A DNA stretch of 31,518 bases from contig JAEOTC010000066.1 in assembly GCA_016840035.1 (NCBI GenBank), positions 1 to 31,518 of the forward strand, given 5' to 3'. Below are positions 22,060-26,890 of the stretch, piece after piece. A program made the position numbers and the translations under genes. The stretch is from Candidatus Hodarchaeota archaeon (GTDB lineage Archaea > Asgardarchaeota > Heimdallarchaeia > Hodarchaeales > Hodarchaeaceae). A model generated the notes under the pieces. That model ran no database searches. It saw only the letters and a list, made by a program, of their open reading frames with translations, and was not told the DNA's origin. Numbering within the stretch: position 1 is the first letter of the stretch; the number at the start of each line of letters is the position of its first letter.

Positions 22060-23439
22060 TCAGATCTTAGATTTTTCGATTAAATCATTGCGATTTATCA
22101 AGAACTCTCTGAATTCTGATTCAAAAGGTTTTTTGGACATTTTATGGAATTGAAGAGTTACATCACGCGATAATGGCTTAGTAAGATGACGCTGTGCGCA
22201 GATAGGAATTGTATATCGGACACCCGTCCGTAATCCTCTTTTTTTCAATTGGTAACCAAAATCTTTTTCCTTAAGTGTGTTTTTACATCTCTTACAACGA
22301 AATCCTTGATTCATTCCGAGAGATTTTAGGGAACCATTACATTGAGGGCATTTAACTGGGATTCTAGAAATAATTTTCTTTAATTTTAAGACTTCAAAGT
22401 GTTCTAAATTAATTGTGATCGGATATTCATCCGAAGCAGGACGAACTCCTCCATAGACCATCAGCTCATCTCCAGTAGTTAATTCTCTTACAAAGTGCCT
22501 AAATATTTTTGTAGGTTCGTAGGCTGCACAATTAATAGATTTTCCATCTGATATAAGAGGAAATAATACATGTCCACCGTTTATCAAATATGGATCAGAA
22601 TTGACTGTTCCTCTCACCTTGACAGAGAAATGTGGTTTAATCTCCTTACCATTAAATTCCTTGGGAAAATGAGGTTGAGTATGTTGATTCGACCGAAATA
22701 ACATAATAGTATTTATCTTTTCGAGAATTTTAATTTTACACCACATATCAATAACCGAACGGGCATTTTCTCCTCTAATTCCCACATAAACTGGGTCTGG
22801 ACCATGTGGAGTGATCATAAGTTGATTATGGATGTAGTCATAATTTCCAAATGATAAAGCTGTCGATTCATCTGCAAGAATAACTGATTCCTCATCAATT
22901 AGTCGTTTAGATACTTTAATATTTGGGTCCCTATAAGCGATGAATTCAAAAGTATAATCAGATTGAAGATCCGTTCCAATGGCTGCAGATGCTCCAATGA
23001 GTCCTCTTCCTTCTTTGATGTGGAAGTATTCACCATTAAAATCTTTATTCAGAATTTCTTTTATTGTTTCTATCTTAATAACTGAGTATAGAGCTTCTTG
23101 GTAAATTTGTTGGAGTCTAGGATCAGGTTTCCCTGATTGTAGGACAATACCTGGATCAGTATTCGTCTCATCAATATCTGAATATGTCTCAACTAGCTTA
23201 ATAGATTCTCTCCAAATTTCCTTAATTTTCTTTTCCTCAGTGATGAATTTTATTGAGACAGCTCCATTCCCCCTCGTTTTATAAGGAATATTAGGATTTA
23301 ATCTTACTAAACGCGGAAAATCGAGAAAATCTACACCTATTCTTTCAAGGAGATCGACAATTAAAGTTGCTAAATAGGTTGTACACATACCATAATTAGA
23401 ATCTGTATCATCAATCCCGATAGTATATTCCTTTAGCAT
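22060..23439 (-). CDS. tiaS: tRNA(Ile2) 2-agmatinylcytidine synthetase TiaS
   Basis: IGIDDTDS..GMCTTY, PRLVRLNPNIPYKTRGNGAV, GRGLIGA, TPHGPDPVYVGIRG, OB fold (GGHV...AAYEPT), zinc ribbon CPQC...CKRC, RHLTKP. Confidence 0.97.
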   Translation of the reverse strand: MLKEYTIGIDDTDSNYGMCTTYLATLIVDLLERIGVDFLDFPRLVRLNPNIPYKTRGNGAVSIKFITEEKKIKEIWRESIKLVETYSDIDETNTDPGIVLQSGKPDPRLQQIYQEALYSVIKIETIKEILNKDFNGEYFHIKEGRGLIGASAAIGTDLQSDYTFEFIAYRDPNIKVSKRLIDEESVILADESTALSFGNYDYIHNQLMITPHGPDPVYVGIRGENARSVIDMWCKIKILEKINTIMLFRSNQHTQPHFPKEFNGKEIKPHFSVKVRGTVNSDPYLINGGHVLFPLISDGKSINCAAYEPTKIFRHFVRELTTGDELMVYGGVRPASDEYPITINLEHFEVLKLKKIISRIPVKCPQCNGSLKSLGMNQGFRCKRCKNTLKEKDFGYQLKKRGLRTGVRYTIPICAQRHLTKPLSRDVTLQFHKMSKKPFESEFREFLINRNDLIEKSKI

Positions 23440-23460
23440 AGATTTCCCGTTTCTTCATTT

Positions 23461-24378
23461 TTAAAGCTTTGAAAGAACTCCTGTTACTAAAAGCGGCAAC
23501 ACTAGTGTAACATCTCCCATAATATCAATCCATTTCGCATCGGTGGTGACTTTTCCCCAAGAAACCGCCTCTTTGATTGATGCGCCACTTACTCCTCCAT
23601 GTTCGGGTCGGTCCATTGTAACTTGGATAGCATAGCTTAGTCCGTCATGCAACTGAGATCCATTCATAATAAAATGTTTAGGTACTCCCCCACCCAGTAT
23701 CATCGCACCCATCTTCTTCGAGTTGTAAATTATCTCCGAAAATTCAGTATGATCCTTCAATACATCGATTTTTAGAGGTTTTGTTTGTGAAAATAGCCAC
23801 GACTGAACTCCTAACATACTGTCAGCGAATGAAGGAGAAAAAATTGGAATTTCTCGTTCATAAGCTAGCCTTACAATGGAATTTGGGTCTGTCACATATC
23901 GACCGATTTCATAGATAAATCGACGAGTGCTCATTGGTTCATTGGGGATATTATCTAAGAGTTTTTGTAATAAATTCTCGAATTTAACAAATGATTCATA
24001 TGAAATAAAAGTATCAAATATTCTGCTAAAATCAAGCTCTTTAATTTTAACATCTTTTAATTGATTATCTCCATGAAAATGGGATCCTCCAGAAGTTTCT
24101 AGAAGATCATGGCTTAAATTTGCACCAGTGGTAATAATACAGTCAACCATATCGTTTTCGATCATTTTATAAAGAATTTTTCGCATTCCGCCCGGAATCA
24201 GAGCACCTGCTAATCCTAAAAATGTTGTACAGGATTTATCTTGAATCATATCCAAGAAAAGATCTGTAGCGAGTGCTACTTTACGACAGGTGAATCCTCC
24301 GTGTTTCATTGAATTTAACAACTCGGATACAGTCATATTCGGCCTAATATCGACTTGCTTCATCTTATGTAGCTTCAT
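23461..24378 (-). CDS. dys: Deoxyhypusine synthase
   Basis: LAGALIPGGMR, IITTGANLSHD, ILGGGVPKHF, GGVSGASIKEAVSWGK (catalytic Lys). Confidence 0.95.
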   Translation of the reverse strand: MKLHKMKQVDIRPNMTVSELLNSMKHGGFTCRKVALATDLFLDMIQDKSCTTFLGLAGALIPGGMRKILYKMIENDMVDCIITTGANLSHDLLETSGGSHFHGDNQLKDVKIKELDFSRIFDTFISYESFVKFENLLQKLLDNIPNEPMSTRRFIYEIGRYVTDPNSIVRLAYEREIPIFSPSFADSMLGVQSWLFSQTKPLKIDVLKDHTEFSEIIYNSKKMGAMILGGGVPKHFIMNGSQLHDGLSYAIQVTMDRPEHGGVSGASIKEAVSWGKVTTDAKWIDIMGDVTLVLPLLVTGVLSKL

Positions 24379-25842: not shown

Positions 25843-25951
25843 TTGATTGATGACTCCTATTAATCTGTGTTGAATATGTAAACTTACAGGATTATCTTAT
25901 CAGGAAATTATTTAATAATTGTATTCTAAAGGTCTTTTAGTGTGATCTCAC

Positions 25952-26890
25952 GTGAGCAATCTAAAATTCGTATCTCACAAACCCCAATCTTTTTGTGGAG
26001 TTATTAAAAGTAACTGGGAAGATGAAACACCTAATTATAATCTATTAGGAGTTCCAATGGATATATCCTCCTCATATCGTCCTGGATCCCGTTTTGGACC
26101 AGATACTTTCCGAAGATTACTTCAGTCAGAGAATTTTGAATGTACATCTGAAACACAGATAGATTTAACATCATATTTTCGAATAAAAGACTGGGGTAAT
26201 ATTGGAGTTATTAATACAGATATCGTAAAAACCCTGAAACGAATAAGTGAGGGGATTACTGACCTAATATCCTTGAAAACTCCTTTTTTGGTTATTGGAG
26301 GAGATCATAGTGTCTCTATAGGTATAGGAAAGGCTTTCGAGACATTAGATATTCCTATTCATACAATATACATCGATGCACATTTAGACTTATATGATGA
26401 GATCAATGAATCTCGTCTATCACATGCATGTTCCCTCAGAAGGCTTTCAGAAATGGATAATTTTGATGGGGCTACCGTTCTTGGTTATAGAGATTTTTTA
26501 ATCGAGCAAGTTGAATATGCAAAGGAAAAAAATATGCAACTATATTCAACATCTGCCCTTCAAAATCAATCAAATATCTTCGAATTTGGAAAATCTTTAA
26601 TTACGGGGTTGGTTCGAGAGCATCAACATTTTCATCTCTCTGTGGATCTAGATGTTCTTGATCCAAGATTTGCTCCAGGTATAGGAAATCCCGTATCATG
26701 TGGGTTATCTAGTAGGGAATTAATGCTTTTATTAACTGGTATTTTTAATGGTCTTCCTCCTGATATAAGATTTAGCTGGGACATAGTAGAGTATAATCCC
26801 ATGTTTGATAATGCGGATATAACGGGCTTTTTTATTATTAAACTCCTAATTGAGTCTTTAGCGGAGCAAATTCAGTTTGTTCAGTCATAA
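25952..26890 (+). CDS. speB: Agmatinase (ureohydrolase/arginase family)
   Basis: GVPMD.SSSYRPGSRFGP, GGDHS, DAHLD, SHAC, SVDLDVLDP.FAPG.G.P, IVEYNP. Confidence 0.85.
   Translation: MSNLKFVSHKPQSFCGVIKSNWEDETPNYNLLGVPMDISSSYRPGSRFGPDTFRRLLQSENFECTSETQIDLTSYFRIKDWGNIGVINTDIVKTLKRISEGITDLISLKTPFLVIGGDHSVSIGIGKAFETLDIPIHTIYIDAHLDLYDEINESRLSHACSLRRLSEMDNFDGATVLGYRDFLIEQVEYAKEKNMQLYSTSALQNQSNIFEFGKSLITGLVREHQHFHLSVDLDVLDPRFAPGIGNPVSCGLSSRELMLLLTGIFNGLPPDIRFSWDIVEYNPMFDNADITGFFIIKLLIESLAEQIQFVQS

Follow-up and report, generated by a model that had tools for sequence, protein, structure and literature searches.

The locus lies in a window of 31,518 nucleotides, the whole stretch of DNA analysed here, from the 87% complete metagenome-assembled genome (MAG) of a member of the Hodarchaeales (Asgard archaea). 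Four genes are read from the reverse strand: those for a fold-III (alanine-racemase-fold) PLP decarboxylase (24547..25842; 431 aa, TTG start), deoxyhypusine synthase (DHS; 23461..24378; 305 aa), TiaS, the tRNA(Ile2) 2-agmatinylcytidine synthetase (22060..23439; 459 aa), and a TPR-repeat protein (20655..22058; 467 aa) with weak matches to TPR_MalT, TPR_2, and TPR_12. On the forward strand lies an agmatinase-like ureohydrolase of the arginase family (25952..26890; 312 aa, GTG start). The ORF positions agree exactly with the original prediction, in which decarboxylase, DHS, and TiaS genes are co-oriented, with 21 bp between the latter two, and the ureohydrolase diverges from the decarboxylase across 109 bp. 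Apart from one distant arginase-family paralog, the decarboxylase, DHS, TiaS, and ureohydrolase genes are all single copy in the genome.

The TiaS stop is separated by 1 bp from the TPR gene, and the two are probably co-transcribed. The TPR gene is missing from the derived clade that has no decarboxylase; it follows TiaS/DHS in G019 and in most decarboxylase-bearing relatives (G006, G011, G005, G001, and the G000 subclade). The AT-rich 168-bp spacer between decarboxylase and DHS (24379..24546) contains TATA-like AT-rich blocks, with one sequence block kept in the four closest relatives, and probably holds the promoter for DHS-TiaS-TPR, while the divergent region (25843..25951), also AT-rich, presumably carries back-to-back promoters. 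The likely arrangement is, therefore, a DHS-TiaS-TPR operon with the decarboxylase and ureohydrolase as neighbouring, separate transcription units, and the earlier idea of one regulated unit is weakened. The spacer is only ~30–60 bp in G001, G017, G021, and G011, so co-transcription of decarboxylase and DHS differs between lineages.

All 22 Hodarchaeales genomes have the ureohydrolase next to DHS. The decarboxylase lies between the two in 11 of these genomes; where it is missing, ureohydrolase and DHS are directly divergent over ~190 bp. In a tree of the linked genes, the decarboxylase-bearing genomes are basal and paraphyletic, so the decarboxylase looks ancestral in Hodarchaeales and was apparently lost once or twice. 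One should keep in mind that the entire 13-kb neighbourhood, from TruD to a PUA-PAPS reductase gene, is syntenic, which makes adjacency alone weak evidence within this order. In a deeper relative (contig L101; DHS 60% and decarboxylase 38% identical), decarboxylase, ureohydrolase, and DHS form a tight co-directional operon, in a different order, with gaps of 1 bp and 26 bp. The gene arrangement is not a chance juxtaposition, since every Hodarchaeales genome searched shows it and the deeper relative has it in rearranged form; the synteny check that had been proposed came out in its favour. TiaS, which had been counted as a member of the module, is absent from the L101 cluster; it is downstream of DHS in 17 of the 20 assessable Hodarchaeales genomes and is a lineage-specific addition that joined the cluster in this order. 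Decarboxylase, ureohydrolase, and DHS make up the conserved functional core.

The decarboxylase (PF02784 and PF00278) is the sole fold-III decarboxylase gene found in its genome. Its best NCBIfam match is the lysA model, at a score of 219 against a cut-off of 298; it also falls under the speA and dokD cut-offs and does not match the nspC model. The best PDB matches are diaminopimelate decarboxylases (DAPDCs; 4xg1 at 135 bits). On alignment, K75 (the PLP lysine), H220, G260, E296, R299, and Y403 correspond to PLP and core residues of LysA, and the enzyme is catalytically equipped. By contrast, LysA R307, Y311, C342, and E343, comprising the DAP-binding Arg, Tyr, and Glu and the usual Cys, are replaced by D337, A341, N368, and D369, whereas R-Y-C-E is intact in the 101 true LysA sequences aligned alongside. 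The N368-D369 codons (24736..24741, reverse strand) align with Cys-Glu in DAPDC and with Cys-Asp in ornithine decarboxylase (ODC). This pattern of replacement is kept across 59 clade members, and the Asn-Asp motif occurs in 10/10 aligned Hodarchaeales orthologs and in homologs from family-f4 Heimdallarchaeia (59 sequences overall). Nitrososphaerota relatives retain Cys-Asp, and Asn at the Cys position is the hallmark of an Asgard subclade, which is small, mostly Asgard, and publicly annotated only as "diaminopimelate decarboxylase family."

Two acidic residues typify the basic-amino-acid decarboxylases, as established from ODC, and D337 with D369 forms such a pair. The decarboxylase is DAPDC-derived but is very unlikely to serve as LysA in this genome, since neither DapB nor DapF was found there, it is the only fold-III gene, and near-complete relatives have no fold-III gene whatever. 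Its ancestry is in a DAPDC lineage specific for a D-centre, so its substrate may be of either configuration.

The most economical reading is an arginine decarboxylase (ADC), to which we give about an even chance, with a guanidino or basic amino acid as the substrate. No pyruvoyl ADC (PdaD), SpeA-type, or AAT-fold ADC was found in the genome, another clade member adjoins a gene for a DDAH/ADI-type guanidino-modifying enzyme, and, since a ureohydrolase can act only on guanidino compounds, the tight decarboxylase-ureohydrolase-DHS operon of L101 points to arginine or another guanidino amino acid as what the decarboxylase acts on. The original prediction that this enzyme makes agmatine stands insofar as the gene does not look like a DAP decarboxylase and no rival ADC was found; the choice of arginine is drawn from genomic context only. 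In the candidate ADC, the position of the proton-donor Cys is occupied by Asn, which, like the D-centre ancestry, counts against the best explanation.

The proposed role in supplying agmatine is weakened by comparison with relatives, half of which have no decarboxylase. The 11 decarboxylase-less Hodarchaeales genomes retain TiaS, DHS, and both ureohydrolases, and in 9 of the 11 (some 96–99% complete) there is no recognisable ADC of any kind. Agmatine must, therefore, come from elsewhere in this clade, and the decarboxylase is not necessarily its supplier in the present genome. A SpeA-like gene is also present in two of the genomes that have the decarboxylase, and in family-f4 Heimdallarchaeia the homolog is directly downstream of one. 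Nitrososphaerota (Thaumarchaeota), in which PdaD is reported to be ubiquitous (PMC6790972), have the Cys-containing sister form. Such sister forms beside PdaD or a SpeA-like gene suggest a role complementary to ADC.

TiaS exceeds the Pfam cut-offs for its TCKD, FLD, and Zn-ribbon domains (PF22641, 104.5 bits; PF08489, 102; PF23783, 37.5), and NF040849 gives 384 bits, under its cut-off of 600. DHS matches PF01916 (327 bits) and TIGR00321 (316, over the 304 cut-off), scores 220 against the 500 required by the SpeY model NF002699, and is the only DHS-family gene of the genome. It retains the equivalents of human His288, Glu323, Trp327, and the catalytic Lys329, with Val in place of both Asp243 and Asp316. 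The aIF5A gene is outside the cluster, on contig C28, and has the GKHG hypusination loop.

The clustered ureohydrolase (PF00491, 191 bits) has invariant GGDH, DAHxD, and SxDxDxxDP motifs and an intact binuclear-metal site; on the agmatinase equivalog TIGR01230 it reaches 151, under the cut-off of 174. The distant paralog, on contig C184, scores 208 on the same model and is the canonical agmatinase; against E. coli SpeB the clustered enzyme gives 62 bits and the paralog 131. By these scores, the clustered protein is a divergent agmatinase-like enzyme, not a canonical agmatinase, and the pair parallels the specialised SpeB homologs that exist for aminopropylagmatine or diagmatine (PMC13625781).

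A profile search found neither a SAM decarboxylase nor a spermidine synthase gene anywhere in the window, as had been stated. The wider search that had been suggested for pdaD, speD, and speE gave a mixed answer: like PdaD, SpeE (spermidine synthase) was not found in the genome, but a SAM decarboxylase domain is present in a fusion of a BpsA-type aminopropyltransferase (BpsA_C) with AdoMet_dc, whose decarboxylase domain is over the SAM decarboxylase equivalog cut-off and which occurs in 19/21 relatives. Given this fusion, spermidine may be the DHS donor. Its neighbours are UbiA- and CTP-transferase-family genes, a lipid-like context that makes a polyamine role uncertain.

In Thermococcus kodakarensis and Thermus thermophilus, agmatine is converted to N1-aminopropylagmatine and then to spermidine, with a SpeB homolog acting last, and agmatine also serves for agmatidine. 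Their ADC is the pyruvoyl PdaD or SpeA and their aminopropyltransferase is SpeE, whereas the sole candidate for the latter here is the BpsA_C-AdoMetDC fusion, of putative activity. The closest sequence relatives of the decarboxylase, LysA and DokD (D-ornithine/D-lysine decarboxylase), share its fold, and DokD demonstrates that the LysA branch is able to switch to basic amino acids; the Hodarchaeales enzyme differs from both in its D, A, D, and Asn replacements and in genomic context. Euryarchaeota possess aIF5A-agmatinase-DHS gene clusters, and an agmatine model has been put forward for Haloferax volcanii (Prunetti et al. 2016, PMC5178350). This comparison, already drawn in the original prediction, is apt: in both cases an archaeon with no obvious spermidine synthase has an agmatinase-like gene beside DHS, and the ureohydrolase may either make the donor or trim guanidinobutyl-aIF5A. 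Here, however, the cluster includes a decarboxylase and TiaS but not aIF5A, it belongs to an Asgard lineage, the genome adds a second, canonical agmatinase and the BpsA fusion, and the candidate ADC is a PLP fold-III enzyme rather than PdaD. Bacterial clusters described by Li et al. (2026, PMC13625781) make homospermidine by way of diagmatine and contain SpeY, a SpeB-like ureohydrolase, and an ADC that is ODC-like and has the alanine-racemase fold. They likewise combine a fold-III decarboxylase turned to arginine (here a candidate) with a DHS-family enzyme and a ureohydrolase of specialised type; in Hodarchaeales, the decarboxylase is of DAPDC rather than ODC descent and has no Cys, the enzyme is of DHS type with aIF5A as its expected acceptor, and TiaS is attached.

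The best explanation as a whole, with odds that we consider close to even, is an agmatine-centred module serving two translation-related modifications. The decarboxylase, having lost DAP binding, would convert L-arginine to agmatine, which TiaS, as its family assignment implies, would use to form agmatidine on tRNA-Ile2; agmatine is the only metabolic link between TiaS and its cluster neighbours. The DHS-linked ureohydrolase would strip urea from an agmatine-derived intermediate and so provide DHS with its aminobutyl donor or product, leading to the modification of aIF5A. We prefer a version of this last step in which the BpsA fusion turns agmatine into N1-aminopropylagmatine, and the clustered ureohydrolase converts that to spermidine for DHS, as in Thermococcus and Thermus. 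Precedents exist for an agmatine-based scheme (PMC5178350, PMC13625781).

The main alternative for the last step, which we regard as possible but doubtful, is the one favoured in the original prediction, Prunetti model 1d, in which DHS would oxidise agmatine and load its 4-guanidinobutyl group onto the lysine of aIF5A, with no spermidine involved, after which the ureohydrolase would take urea off the modified protein to give deoxyhypusine. Haloferax genetics and biochemistry back the model (PMC5178350), and bacterial SpeY is a DHS-family agmatine user whose partner ureohydrolases are substrate-specific (PMC13625781). The 22/22 adjacency of ureohydrolase and DHS, which outlasts the rearrangement in L101, the location of the canonical agmatinase elsewhere, the missing SpeE, the lipid-like context of the only aminopropyltransferase candidate, and the two Val residues of DHS would all fit. 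A ureohydrolase that forms spermidine from aminopropylagmatine would, though, be expected to cluster in the same way; the BpsA fusion is conserved, DHS passes its own equivalog cut-off and is far under that for SpeY, and the route is not known to have been demonstrated biochemically in any archaeon. Nor are the Val residues decisive, as the archaeal DHS of PDB 8put is also without the two acidic residues and Sulfolobus solfataricus DHS uses spermidine (PMC6105217). Homospermidine formation, in which an ADC supplies a SpeY-like coupling of two agmatines, a diagmatine ureohydrolase follows, and the single DHS modifies aIF5A as a second job, would match the gene content of the bacterial clusters (PMC13625781) and the presence of a divergent beside a canonical ureohydrolase. 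We consider it most improbable: the one DHS gene of the genome is assigned by HMM to the DHS type, the presence of aIF5A with its target lysine means that DHS has to serve this protein, and a canonical agmatinase in the same cell would drain agmatine, which is argued to be incompatible with the SpeY route (PMC13625781).

Other readings change the substrate of the decarboxylase. Ornithine or lysine, giving putrescine or cadaverine for spermidine synthesis or for DHS directly, with agmatine sourced elsewhere, seems unlikely, even with an acidic pair that is an ODC/LDC-type signature, homologs that other lineages carry alongside genuine ADC types (PMC6790972), and decarboxylase-less relatives that still run agmatine-dependent enzymes. 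A PH1688-like gene (saccharopine/lysine dehydrogenase family) also tracks the decarboxylase, in 8/11 genomes with it and 0/11 without, but this is phylogenetically confounded by the one or two loss events. The 1-bp gap between decarboxylase and ureohydrolase in L101 argues for a guanidino-retaining product, and searches of the genome yielded no other ADC. A carboxylated polyamine is distinctly improbable as the substrate; for example, carboxyaminopropylagmatine, made in an aspartate-semialdehyde-dependent manner as in Synechocystis, would be decarboxylated to N1-aminopropylagmatine and passed to the adjacent ureohydrolase to give spermidine for DHS. This would account for the adjacency to both genes, for co-occurrence with ADCs in other lineages, and for gene loss where the dcSAM route exists, and Sacchrp_dh-family genes are present, one overlapping an arginase-family gene in several relatives (precedent in PMC10599626). 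Against it, the decarboxylase does not resemble the nspC family; the Sacchrp_dh gene that co-occurs with it has its best matches in PH1688 and saccharopine enzymes and is flanked by non-polyamine genes; and the Sacchrp_dh-arginase pair is also found in decarboxylase-less genomes. Finally, a plain LysA in accidental synteny would agree with the best NCBIfam and PDB matches, the public annotation, and the synteny of the entire neighbourhood, but is scarcely credible when R307, Y311, and E343 are all replaced, the lysA score is under the cut-off, the DapB and DapF searches were negative, relatives do without any LysA, and the trio is retained after rearrangement in L101.

The agmatine-centred module that we prefer would be encoded by a cluster that is a variation on the known agmatinase-DHS and ADC-SpeB-SpeY clusters. 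As Asgard archaea are the closest archaeal relatives of eukaryotes, it makes their route to hypusine directly testable.

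The cluster lies on contig C293, whose 31.5 kb make up the entire window, within a 4.3-Mb genome of 293 contigs that is 87% complete. ORF calling, Pfam, and NCBIfam confirmed the four genes with the families, orientation, and gaps of the original prediction. On the minus strand are TiaS (22060-23439) and deoxyhypusine synthase (DHS; 23461-24378), both called by ORF with Pfam and NCBIfam support, and a PLP decarboxylase (24547-25842) with two fold-III Pfam domains; an arginase-family ureohydrolase, identified by Pfam, is on the plus strand (25952-26890). The intergenic distances are 21 bp between DHS and TiaS, 168 bp between the decarboxylase and DHS, and 109 bp across the divergent gap between decarboxylase and ureohydrolase. 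Elsewhere the contig encodes proteins of information processing, namely AglB/STT3, ValRS, RpoB, Spt5, ribosomal proteins L10, L1, and L11, an SRP54-type GTPase (FtsY/SRP54 family), eIF6, prefoldin, and TruD. Judged by the names attached to close homologs, the organism belongs to Candidatus Hodarchaeales, a group of Heimdallarchaeia. Rfam and tRNA scans across the window gave no match.

Three neighboring genes deserve a brief description. A Kbl/BioF-family PLP acyltransferase gene (27039-28250), below the equivalog cut-offs, follows the clustered ureohydrolase after 148 bp in the same orientation; it is found in this place in all Hodarchaeales genomes examined (76-94% identity) and is absent from the rearranged metagenomic contig L101. 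The 652-aa protein encoded at 28911-30869 combines PUA, PAPS-reductase-like, and C-terminal 4Fe-4S ferredoxin domains, scores above the cut-off of NF010368 ("hypothetical protein"), is conserved as part of the syntenic block, and might act in RNA modification. The EMC3/TMCO1-like gene adjoining the cluster gives a two-piece match, with about 650 bp between the pieces, in three relatives (G003, G007, and G008; L060:6531-7748, L061:12027-13244, and L064:6344-7531 of the extracted stretches, respectively), which could represent an insertion or a split gene.

The 21 bp between DHS and TiaS, together with the 1 bp between TiaS and the TPR gene beyond it, indicate that these genes are probably carried on a single transcript. 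The idea that the whole cluster forms one regulated unit is not supported: the ureohydrolase is transcribed divergently, the 168-bp spacer before DHS is AT-rich, and only DHS-TiaS-TPR resemble an operon. This spacer is 168-200 bp long, AT-rich, and partly conserved in the genome and its four closest relatives, and is approximately 30-60 bp long in the relatives G001, G017, G021, and G011. Since its length differs between lineages, the decarboxylase may plausibly share a transcript with DHS in some of them, but in the present genome this is doubtful.

The DHS is encoded by a single-copy gene, and its TIGR00321 score of 316 exceeds the cut-off of 304.25; against NF002699, the model for the bacterial DHS-family enzyme SpeY, it reaches 219.8 bits, below the cut-off of 500. 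Its motifs EAVSWGK and GGGVPKH align with human E323/W327/K329 and K287/H288, respectively. At the positions of human Asp243 and Asp316 the enzyme has Val, but an archaeal DHS (PDB 8put) also has no acidic residues there, and the Val pair is therefore not diagnostic of the donor. The aIF5A gene is located on another contig (C28:120621-121055) and encodes the loop KSKPGKHGAAK. Among the aIF5A genes of relatives (stretches L119-L144), the Hodarchaeales hypusine loop is KSKPGKHGAAKAR, and that of another Heimdallarchaeia family, f4, is HSKTGKHGHAKIR, which is eukaryote-like.

TiaS possesses the TCKD kinase-like, FLD, and C-terminal Zn ribbon Pfam domains, all above their cut-offs, and its NF040849 score of 384 bits, below the cut-off of 600, marks it as a divergent member of the family. 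The clustered ureohydrolase belongs to the arginase/ureohydrolase superfamily (PF00491, 191 bits), and its metal ligands (G116-G-D-H119, D142-A-H-L-D146, and S230-x-D232-x-D234-x-x-D237-P) do not vary among 20 orthologs. There are two ureohydrolases in the genome, this divergent, DHS-linked enzyme and a canonical agmatinase on contig C184. The former scores 151.3 and the latter 208.2 against the agmatinase equivalog TIGR01230 (cut-off 174.3), and they match E. coli SpeB with 62 and 131 bits, respectively. Of 21 relatives, 19 have the canonical agmatinase, with or without the decarboxylase, and the two genes show no co-occurrence pattern. A complex prediction pairing the clustered ureohydrolase with the N-domain of aIF5A (residues 1-75) scored 0.04 against a mark of 0.32, a result that counts neither way on binding.

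The decarboxylase is a member of fold III (PF02784, 140 bits; PF00278, 24.8 bits). We aligned it with E. coli LysA from NC_000913, ten Hodarchaeales orthologs, and about 250 database homologs; its K75, H220, G260, E296-S-G-R299, and Y403 correspond to LysA K54, H191, G227, E268-P-G-R271, and Y378. Its best matches are diaminopimelate decarboxylases (DAPDCs), with 135 bits for PDB 4xg1 and, as the best NCBIfam score, 218.8 for the lysA model TIGR01048, which is below the cut-off of 297.9. The residues that in LysA contact the distal end of diaminopimelate (DAP) are changed, with R307 replaced by D337, Y311 by A341, and E343 by D369, and the preceding C342 by Asn368. HMMER and MAFFT disagree by one column near R307/Y311, and there is no Arg or Tyr there in either alignment. 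Because the replacing residues are all smaller, a pocket sized for DAP would be enlarged. The R-Y-C-E pattern of LysA is kept by 101 sequences of the same alignment, whereas Asp at both 307 and 343 defines a clade of 161 sequences (FastTree support 0.81); within it, Asn replaces Cys in 59, mostly from Asgard archaea (support 0.84), and the Nitrososphaerota members retain the Cys (D...C-D). The family is small, with 55 cluster representatives at E <= 1e-30 among 1.8 billion. Databases label the Cys-less subfamily "diaminopimelate decarboxylase family"; its members have lost the residues that bind DAP as well as the catalytic Cys usual in such enzymes.

Several named enzymes were considered and set aside. 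The protein can hardly be LysA, given the replaced R/Y/E residues, the TIGR01048 score, and DAP pathway genes that were not found: neither DAP epimerase DapF (PF01678) nor DapB_C (PF05173) is present in the 87%-complete genome. The genome contains no second fold-III decarboxylase, and near-complete relatives contain no fold-III decarboxylase of any sort, which suggests that the DAP pathway is probably unused in the clade. SpeA, a fold-III enzyme of about 630 aa, does not fit a 431-aa protein scoring 65 against 624 for TIGR01273 and 82 against 369 bits for NF003763. The decarboxylase falls far under the DokD cut-off, and the NspC model TIGR01047 has no match at E <= 0.001 in the protein or the whole genome.

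Sixty relatives were searched for the cluster, 21 of them in the same clade as the genome. The synteny check that accompanied the original prediction came out well for the ureohydrolase and DHS, which are adjacent and divergent in 21/21 same-clade genomes, but less so for their partners: the decarboxylase occupies the place between the two in 11 of the 22 genomes, this one included (43-64% identity), and TiaS follows DHS in 17 of the 20 assessable genomes. In three relatives (G005, G006, and G019) the TPR gene comes directly after DHS, and in the 11 decarboxylase-less genomes the gap between ureohydrolase and DHS is roughly 190-260 bp. A midpoint-rooted tree built from three linked genes (KBL, DHS, and ureohydrolase), with G009 left out, places the decarboxylase-bearing genomes as basal and paraphyletic and the decarboxylase-less ones in one derived clade plus G019. 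From these positions the decarboxylase looks ancestral in its slot and lost once or twice, a reading that depends on the rooting.

One should be careful with adjacency within the order, which by itself is weak evidence since these genomes share the entire gene order from TruD to the PUA-PAPS-reductase gene. In other Heimdallarchaeia families, DHS is found without any of these neighbors. The best support here for functional coupling comes from the more divergent metagenomic contig L101, where the trio has been kept after rearrangement: decarboxylase, ureohydrolase, and DHS (38%, 41%, and 60% identity, respectively) are co-directional and lie 1 and 26 bp apart. As TiaS is absent from L101, the core appears to consist of the other three genes. 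The arrangement of the window is itself repeated on further metagenomic contigs.

We then come to the polyamine genes found elsewhere. Neither PdaD, a SpeA-type gene, an AAT-fold arginine decarboxylase (ADC), nor a genuine spermidine synthase was found in the genome; the Hodarchaeales genomes compared likewise have no PdaD or AAT-fold ADC. The original prediction had seen no spermidine synthase or SAM decarboxylase in the window; in the genome as a whole, an AdoMet_dc domain is present on contig C229. It forms the C-terminal part of a 462-aa fusion (C229:3003-4391; L001:451-1839 in the extracted stretch), recognized by its Pfam domains and the SAM decarboxylase equivalog, with an N-terminal BpsA_C aminopropyltransferase domain. 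This AdoMet_dc domain is the sole one in the genome and scores above the equivalog cut-off. Nineteen of 21 relatives also have the fusion, whose gene lies between members of the UbiA-prenyltransferase and CTP-transferase families and is the only candidate in the genome for polyamine synthesis dependent on dcSAM.

Many Hodarchaeales genomes possess TiaS and two agmatine-type ureohydrolases, yet no recognizable arginine decarboxylase. Nine relatives (G003, G007, G008, G009, G010, G012, G013, G015, and G019), some of them 96-99% complete, have no fold-III, SpeA-like, PdaD, or AAT-fold ADC, and all except G010 have no stand-alone SpeD paralog. All nine contain both the canonical agmatinase and the DHS-linked ureohydrolase; TiaS lies beside DHS in seven, is missing from that place in G019, and G009 is outside the count. 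Since TiaS, DHS, and both ureohydrolases are kept in these relatives, another source of agmatine must exist in the clade.

What, then, does the decarboxylase act upon? DAPDC is specific for the D-center, and it is from DAPDC that this lineage derives. In basic-amino-acid decarboxylases such as ornithine decarboxylase (ODC), two acidic pocket residues hold the distal cation of the substrate, and the Cys of the Cys-Asp motif is the proton donor in enzymes of the ODC/lysine decarboxylase (LDC) type. D337, N368, and D369 occupy what we take to be the positions of ODC D332, C360, and D361; the acidic pair (D337 and D369) is present, and the ODC/LDC-type Cys is Asn368 throughout the Asgard subclade. 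We hold ornithine or lysine to be an unlikely substrate. From its context, to which the acidic pair may be added, we give arginine about an even chance. The enzyme is the sole ADC candidate in the genome, and it is adjoined in two different gene orders by a ureohydrolase, which needs a guanidino substrate. Agmatine is the sole metabolic link of TiaS to the neighborhood, and a DDAH/ADI-type guanidino-modifying enzyme adjoins another member of the clade. There is also the analogy of a bacterial cluster of the same three families, in which the fold-III enzyme was neofunctionalized to ADC (PMC13625781).

Against arginine are the nine relatives described above, which keep the agmatine-related genes without this decarboxylase, the coexistence of a SpeA-like gene with the decarboxylase in two genomes, the position of the family-f4 homolog directly after a SpeA-like gene, and the reported ubiquity of PdaD in Nitrososphaerota (PMC6790972), which carry the Cys-containing sister enzyme. 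Such coexistence would be understandable if the enzyme complemented an ADC, and for this reason a role of the carboxyaminopropylagmatine type was examined. A Sacchrp_dh-family gene on contig C123 has orthologs in 8/11 decarboxylase-bearing and 0/11 decarboxylase-less genomes, but this co-occurrence is phylogenetically confounded, as one or two losses suffice to produce it. Moreover, the best sequence-to-structure match of the C123 protein is PH1688, followed by saccharopine enzymes, and its gene neighbors are unrelated to polyamines; we consider a carboxy-polyamine substrate decidedly improbable. A test for non-orthologous displacement of the ADC gave no clear pattern, as SpeA-like genes (600-650 aa in the relatives) occur in two decarboxylase-bearing and two decarboxylase-less genomes. 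Some family-f4 matches have a "1 TAA" flag; in the one SpeA-like gene compared with its ORF (stretch L051), it results from the match reading on into sequence immediately before the start codon. Nitrososphaerota and other distant homologs are found in housekeeping or unrelated operons, which give no clue to their role.

Some contexts of homologs and related genes are recorded here in their own right. In family f4, a conserved co-directional array (L051:3379-11074, from G033:C15, and L096) encodes a dCache-TPR-VWA protein, a dCache-HAMP protein, a 600-aa SpeA-like decarboxylase, and finally the D/N-D homolog, that is, two fold-III decarboxylases in tandem behind two sensor-type proteins. A tight operon on L102 (1782-7255) and on the contig of database homolog P0008 comprises an aldehyde dehydrogenase, a protein of approximately 460-470 aa, and a distant D/(N,T)-D decarboxylase homolog; an ornithine-cyclodeaminase-family gene follows on L102, and the P0008 contig ends at the decarboxylase. 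With an aldehyde dehydrogenase beside a decarboxylase that has no Cys, one may ask if such enzymes release aldehydes. In G001 (contig C17; L105:6274-8590), a 371-aa arginase-family gene, a third ureohydrolase paralog, overlaps a 407-aa Sacchrp_dh gene by 23 bp in an apparent two-gene operon, a pairing that recalls carboxyaminopropylagmatine-type chemistry and is also present in G005:C376, G013:C309, G017:C113, G019:C39, and G021:C446. On contig C174 of the present genome (L098:60-2487), an AlaDh_PNT-domain gene immediately precedes a 454-aa Sacchrp_dh gene (PF16653, 283 bits), and the two look, from their domains, like the lysine-ketoglutarate reductase/saccharopine dehydrogenase pair of eukaryote-type lysine metabolism.

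Judged by gene content, three routes to deoxyhypusine would fit. In the one that we favor, the fusion protein would aminopropylate agmatine, the clustered ureohydrolase would convert the product to spermidine, and DHS would take spermidine as donor. [quoted passage not shown] DHS might instead use agmatine, with the ureohydrolase trimming guanidinobutyl-aIF5A, as in the Prunetti model (PMC5178350), and this is the question put for archaea by Li et al. 2026 (PMC13625781). The genes would also suit a route in which putrescine made by agmatinase, directly or after aminopropylation, feeds DHS.

Agmatinase-DHS(-aIF5A) clusters are already known in Euryarchaeota (PMC5178350), as are ADC-SpeB-SpeY clusters in bacteria (PMC13625781). 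The euryarchaeal cluster has only the agmatinase-like/DHS adjacency in common with ours, and its aIF5A gene lies beside the agmatinase-like gene, whereas here it is on the separate contig C28. What is new is the Asgard setting, a Cys-less subfamily derived from DAPDC as the decarboxylase of the cluster, TiaS within the probable DHS operon, and a dedicated DHS-linked ureohydrolase alongside a canonical agmatinase. Whether archaeal DHS uses spermidine or agmatine was raised for Haloferax in 2016 (PMC5178350) and again by Li et al. 2026 (PMC13625781). The small size of the cluster, three or four genes, makes this question testable with three proteins, and if the decarboxylase is an ADC, that activity would have arisen independently one more time.

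Hypusination of (a/e)IF5A is essential, and to our knowledge spermidine has no other essential role that is conserved in eukaryotes, to which the Hodarchaeales are often placed closest. We think it doubtful that Hodarchaeales make deoxyhypusine from agmatine rather than spermidine. In such a scheme the Cys-less, DAPDC-derived arginine decarboxylase might yield agmatine, DHS might move the guanidinobutyl group onto aIF5A, and the DHS-linked ureohydrolase, not the canonical agmatinase, might complete the modification on the protein; the same agmatine pool might also supply TiaS, co-transcribed with DHS. If the scheme were true, spermidine-dependent hypusination would be a later innovation on the eukaryote side.
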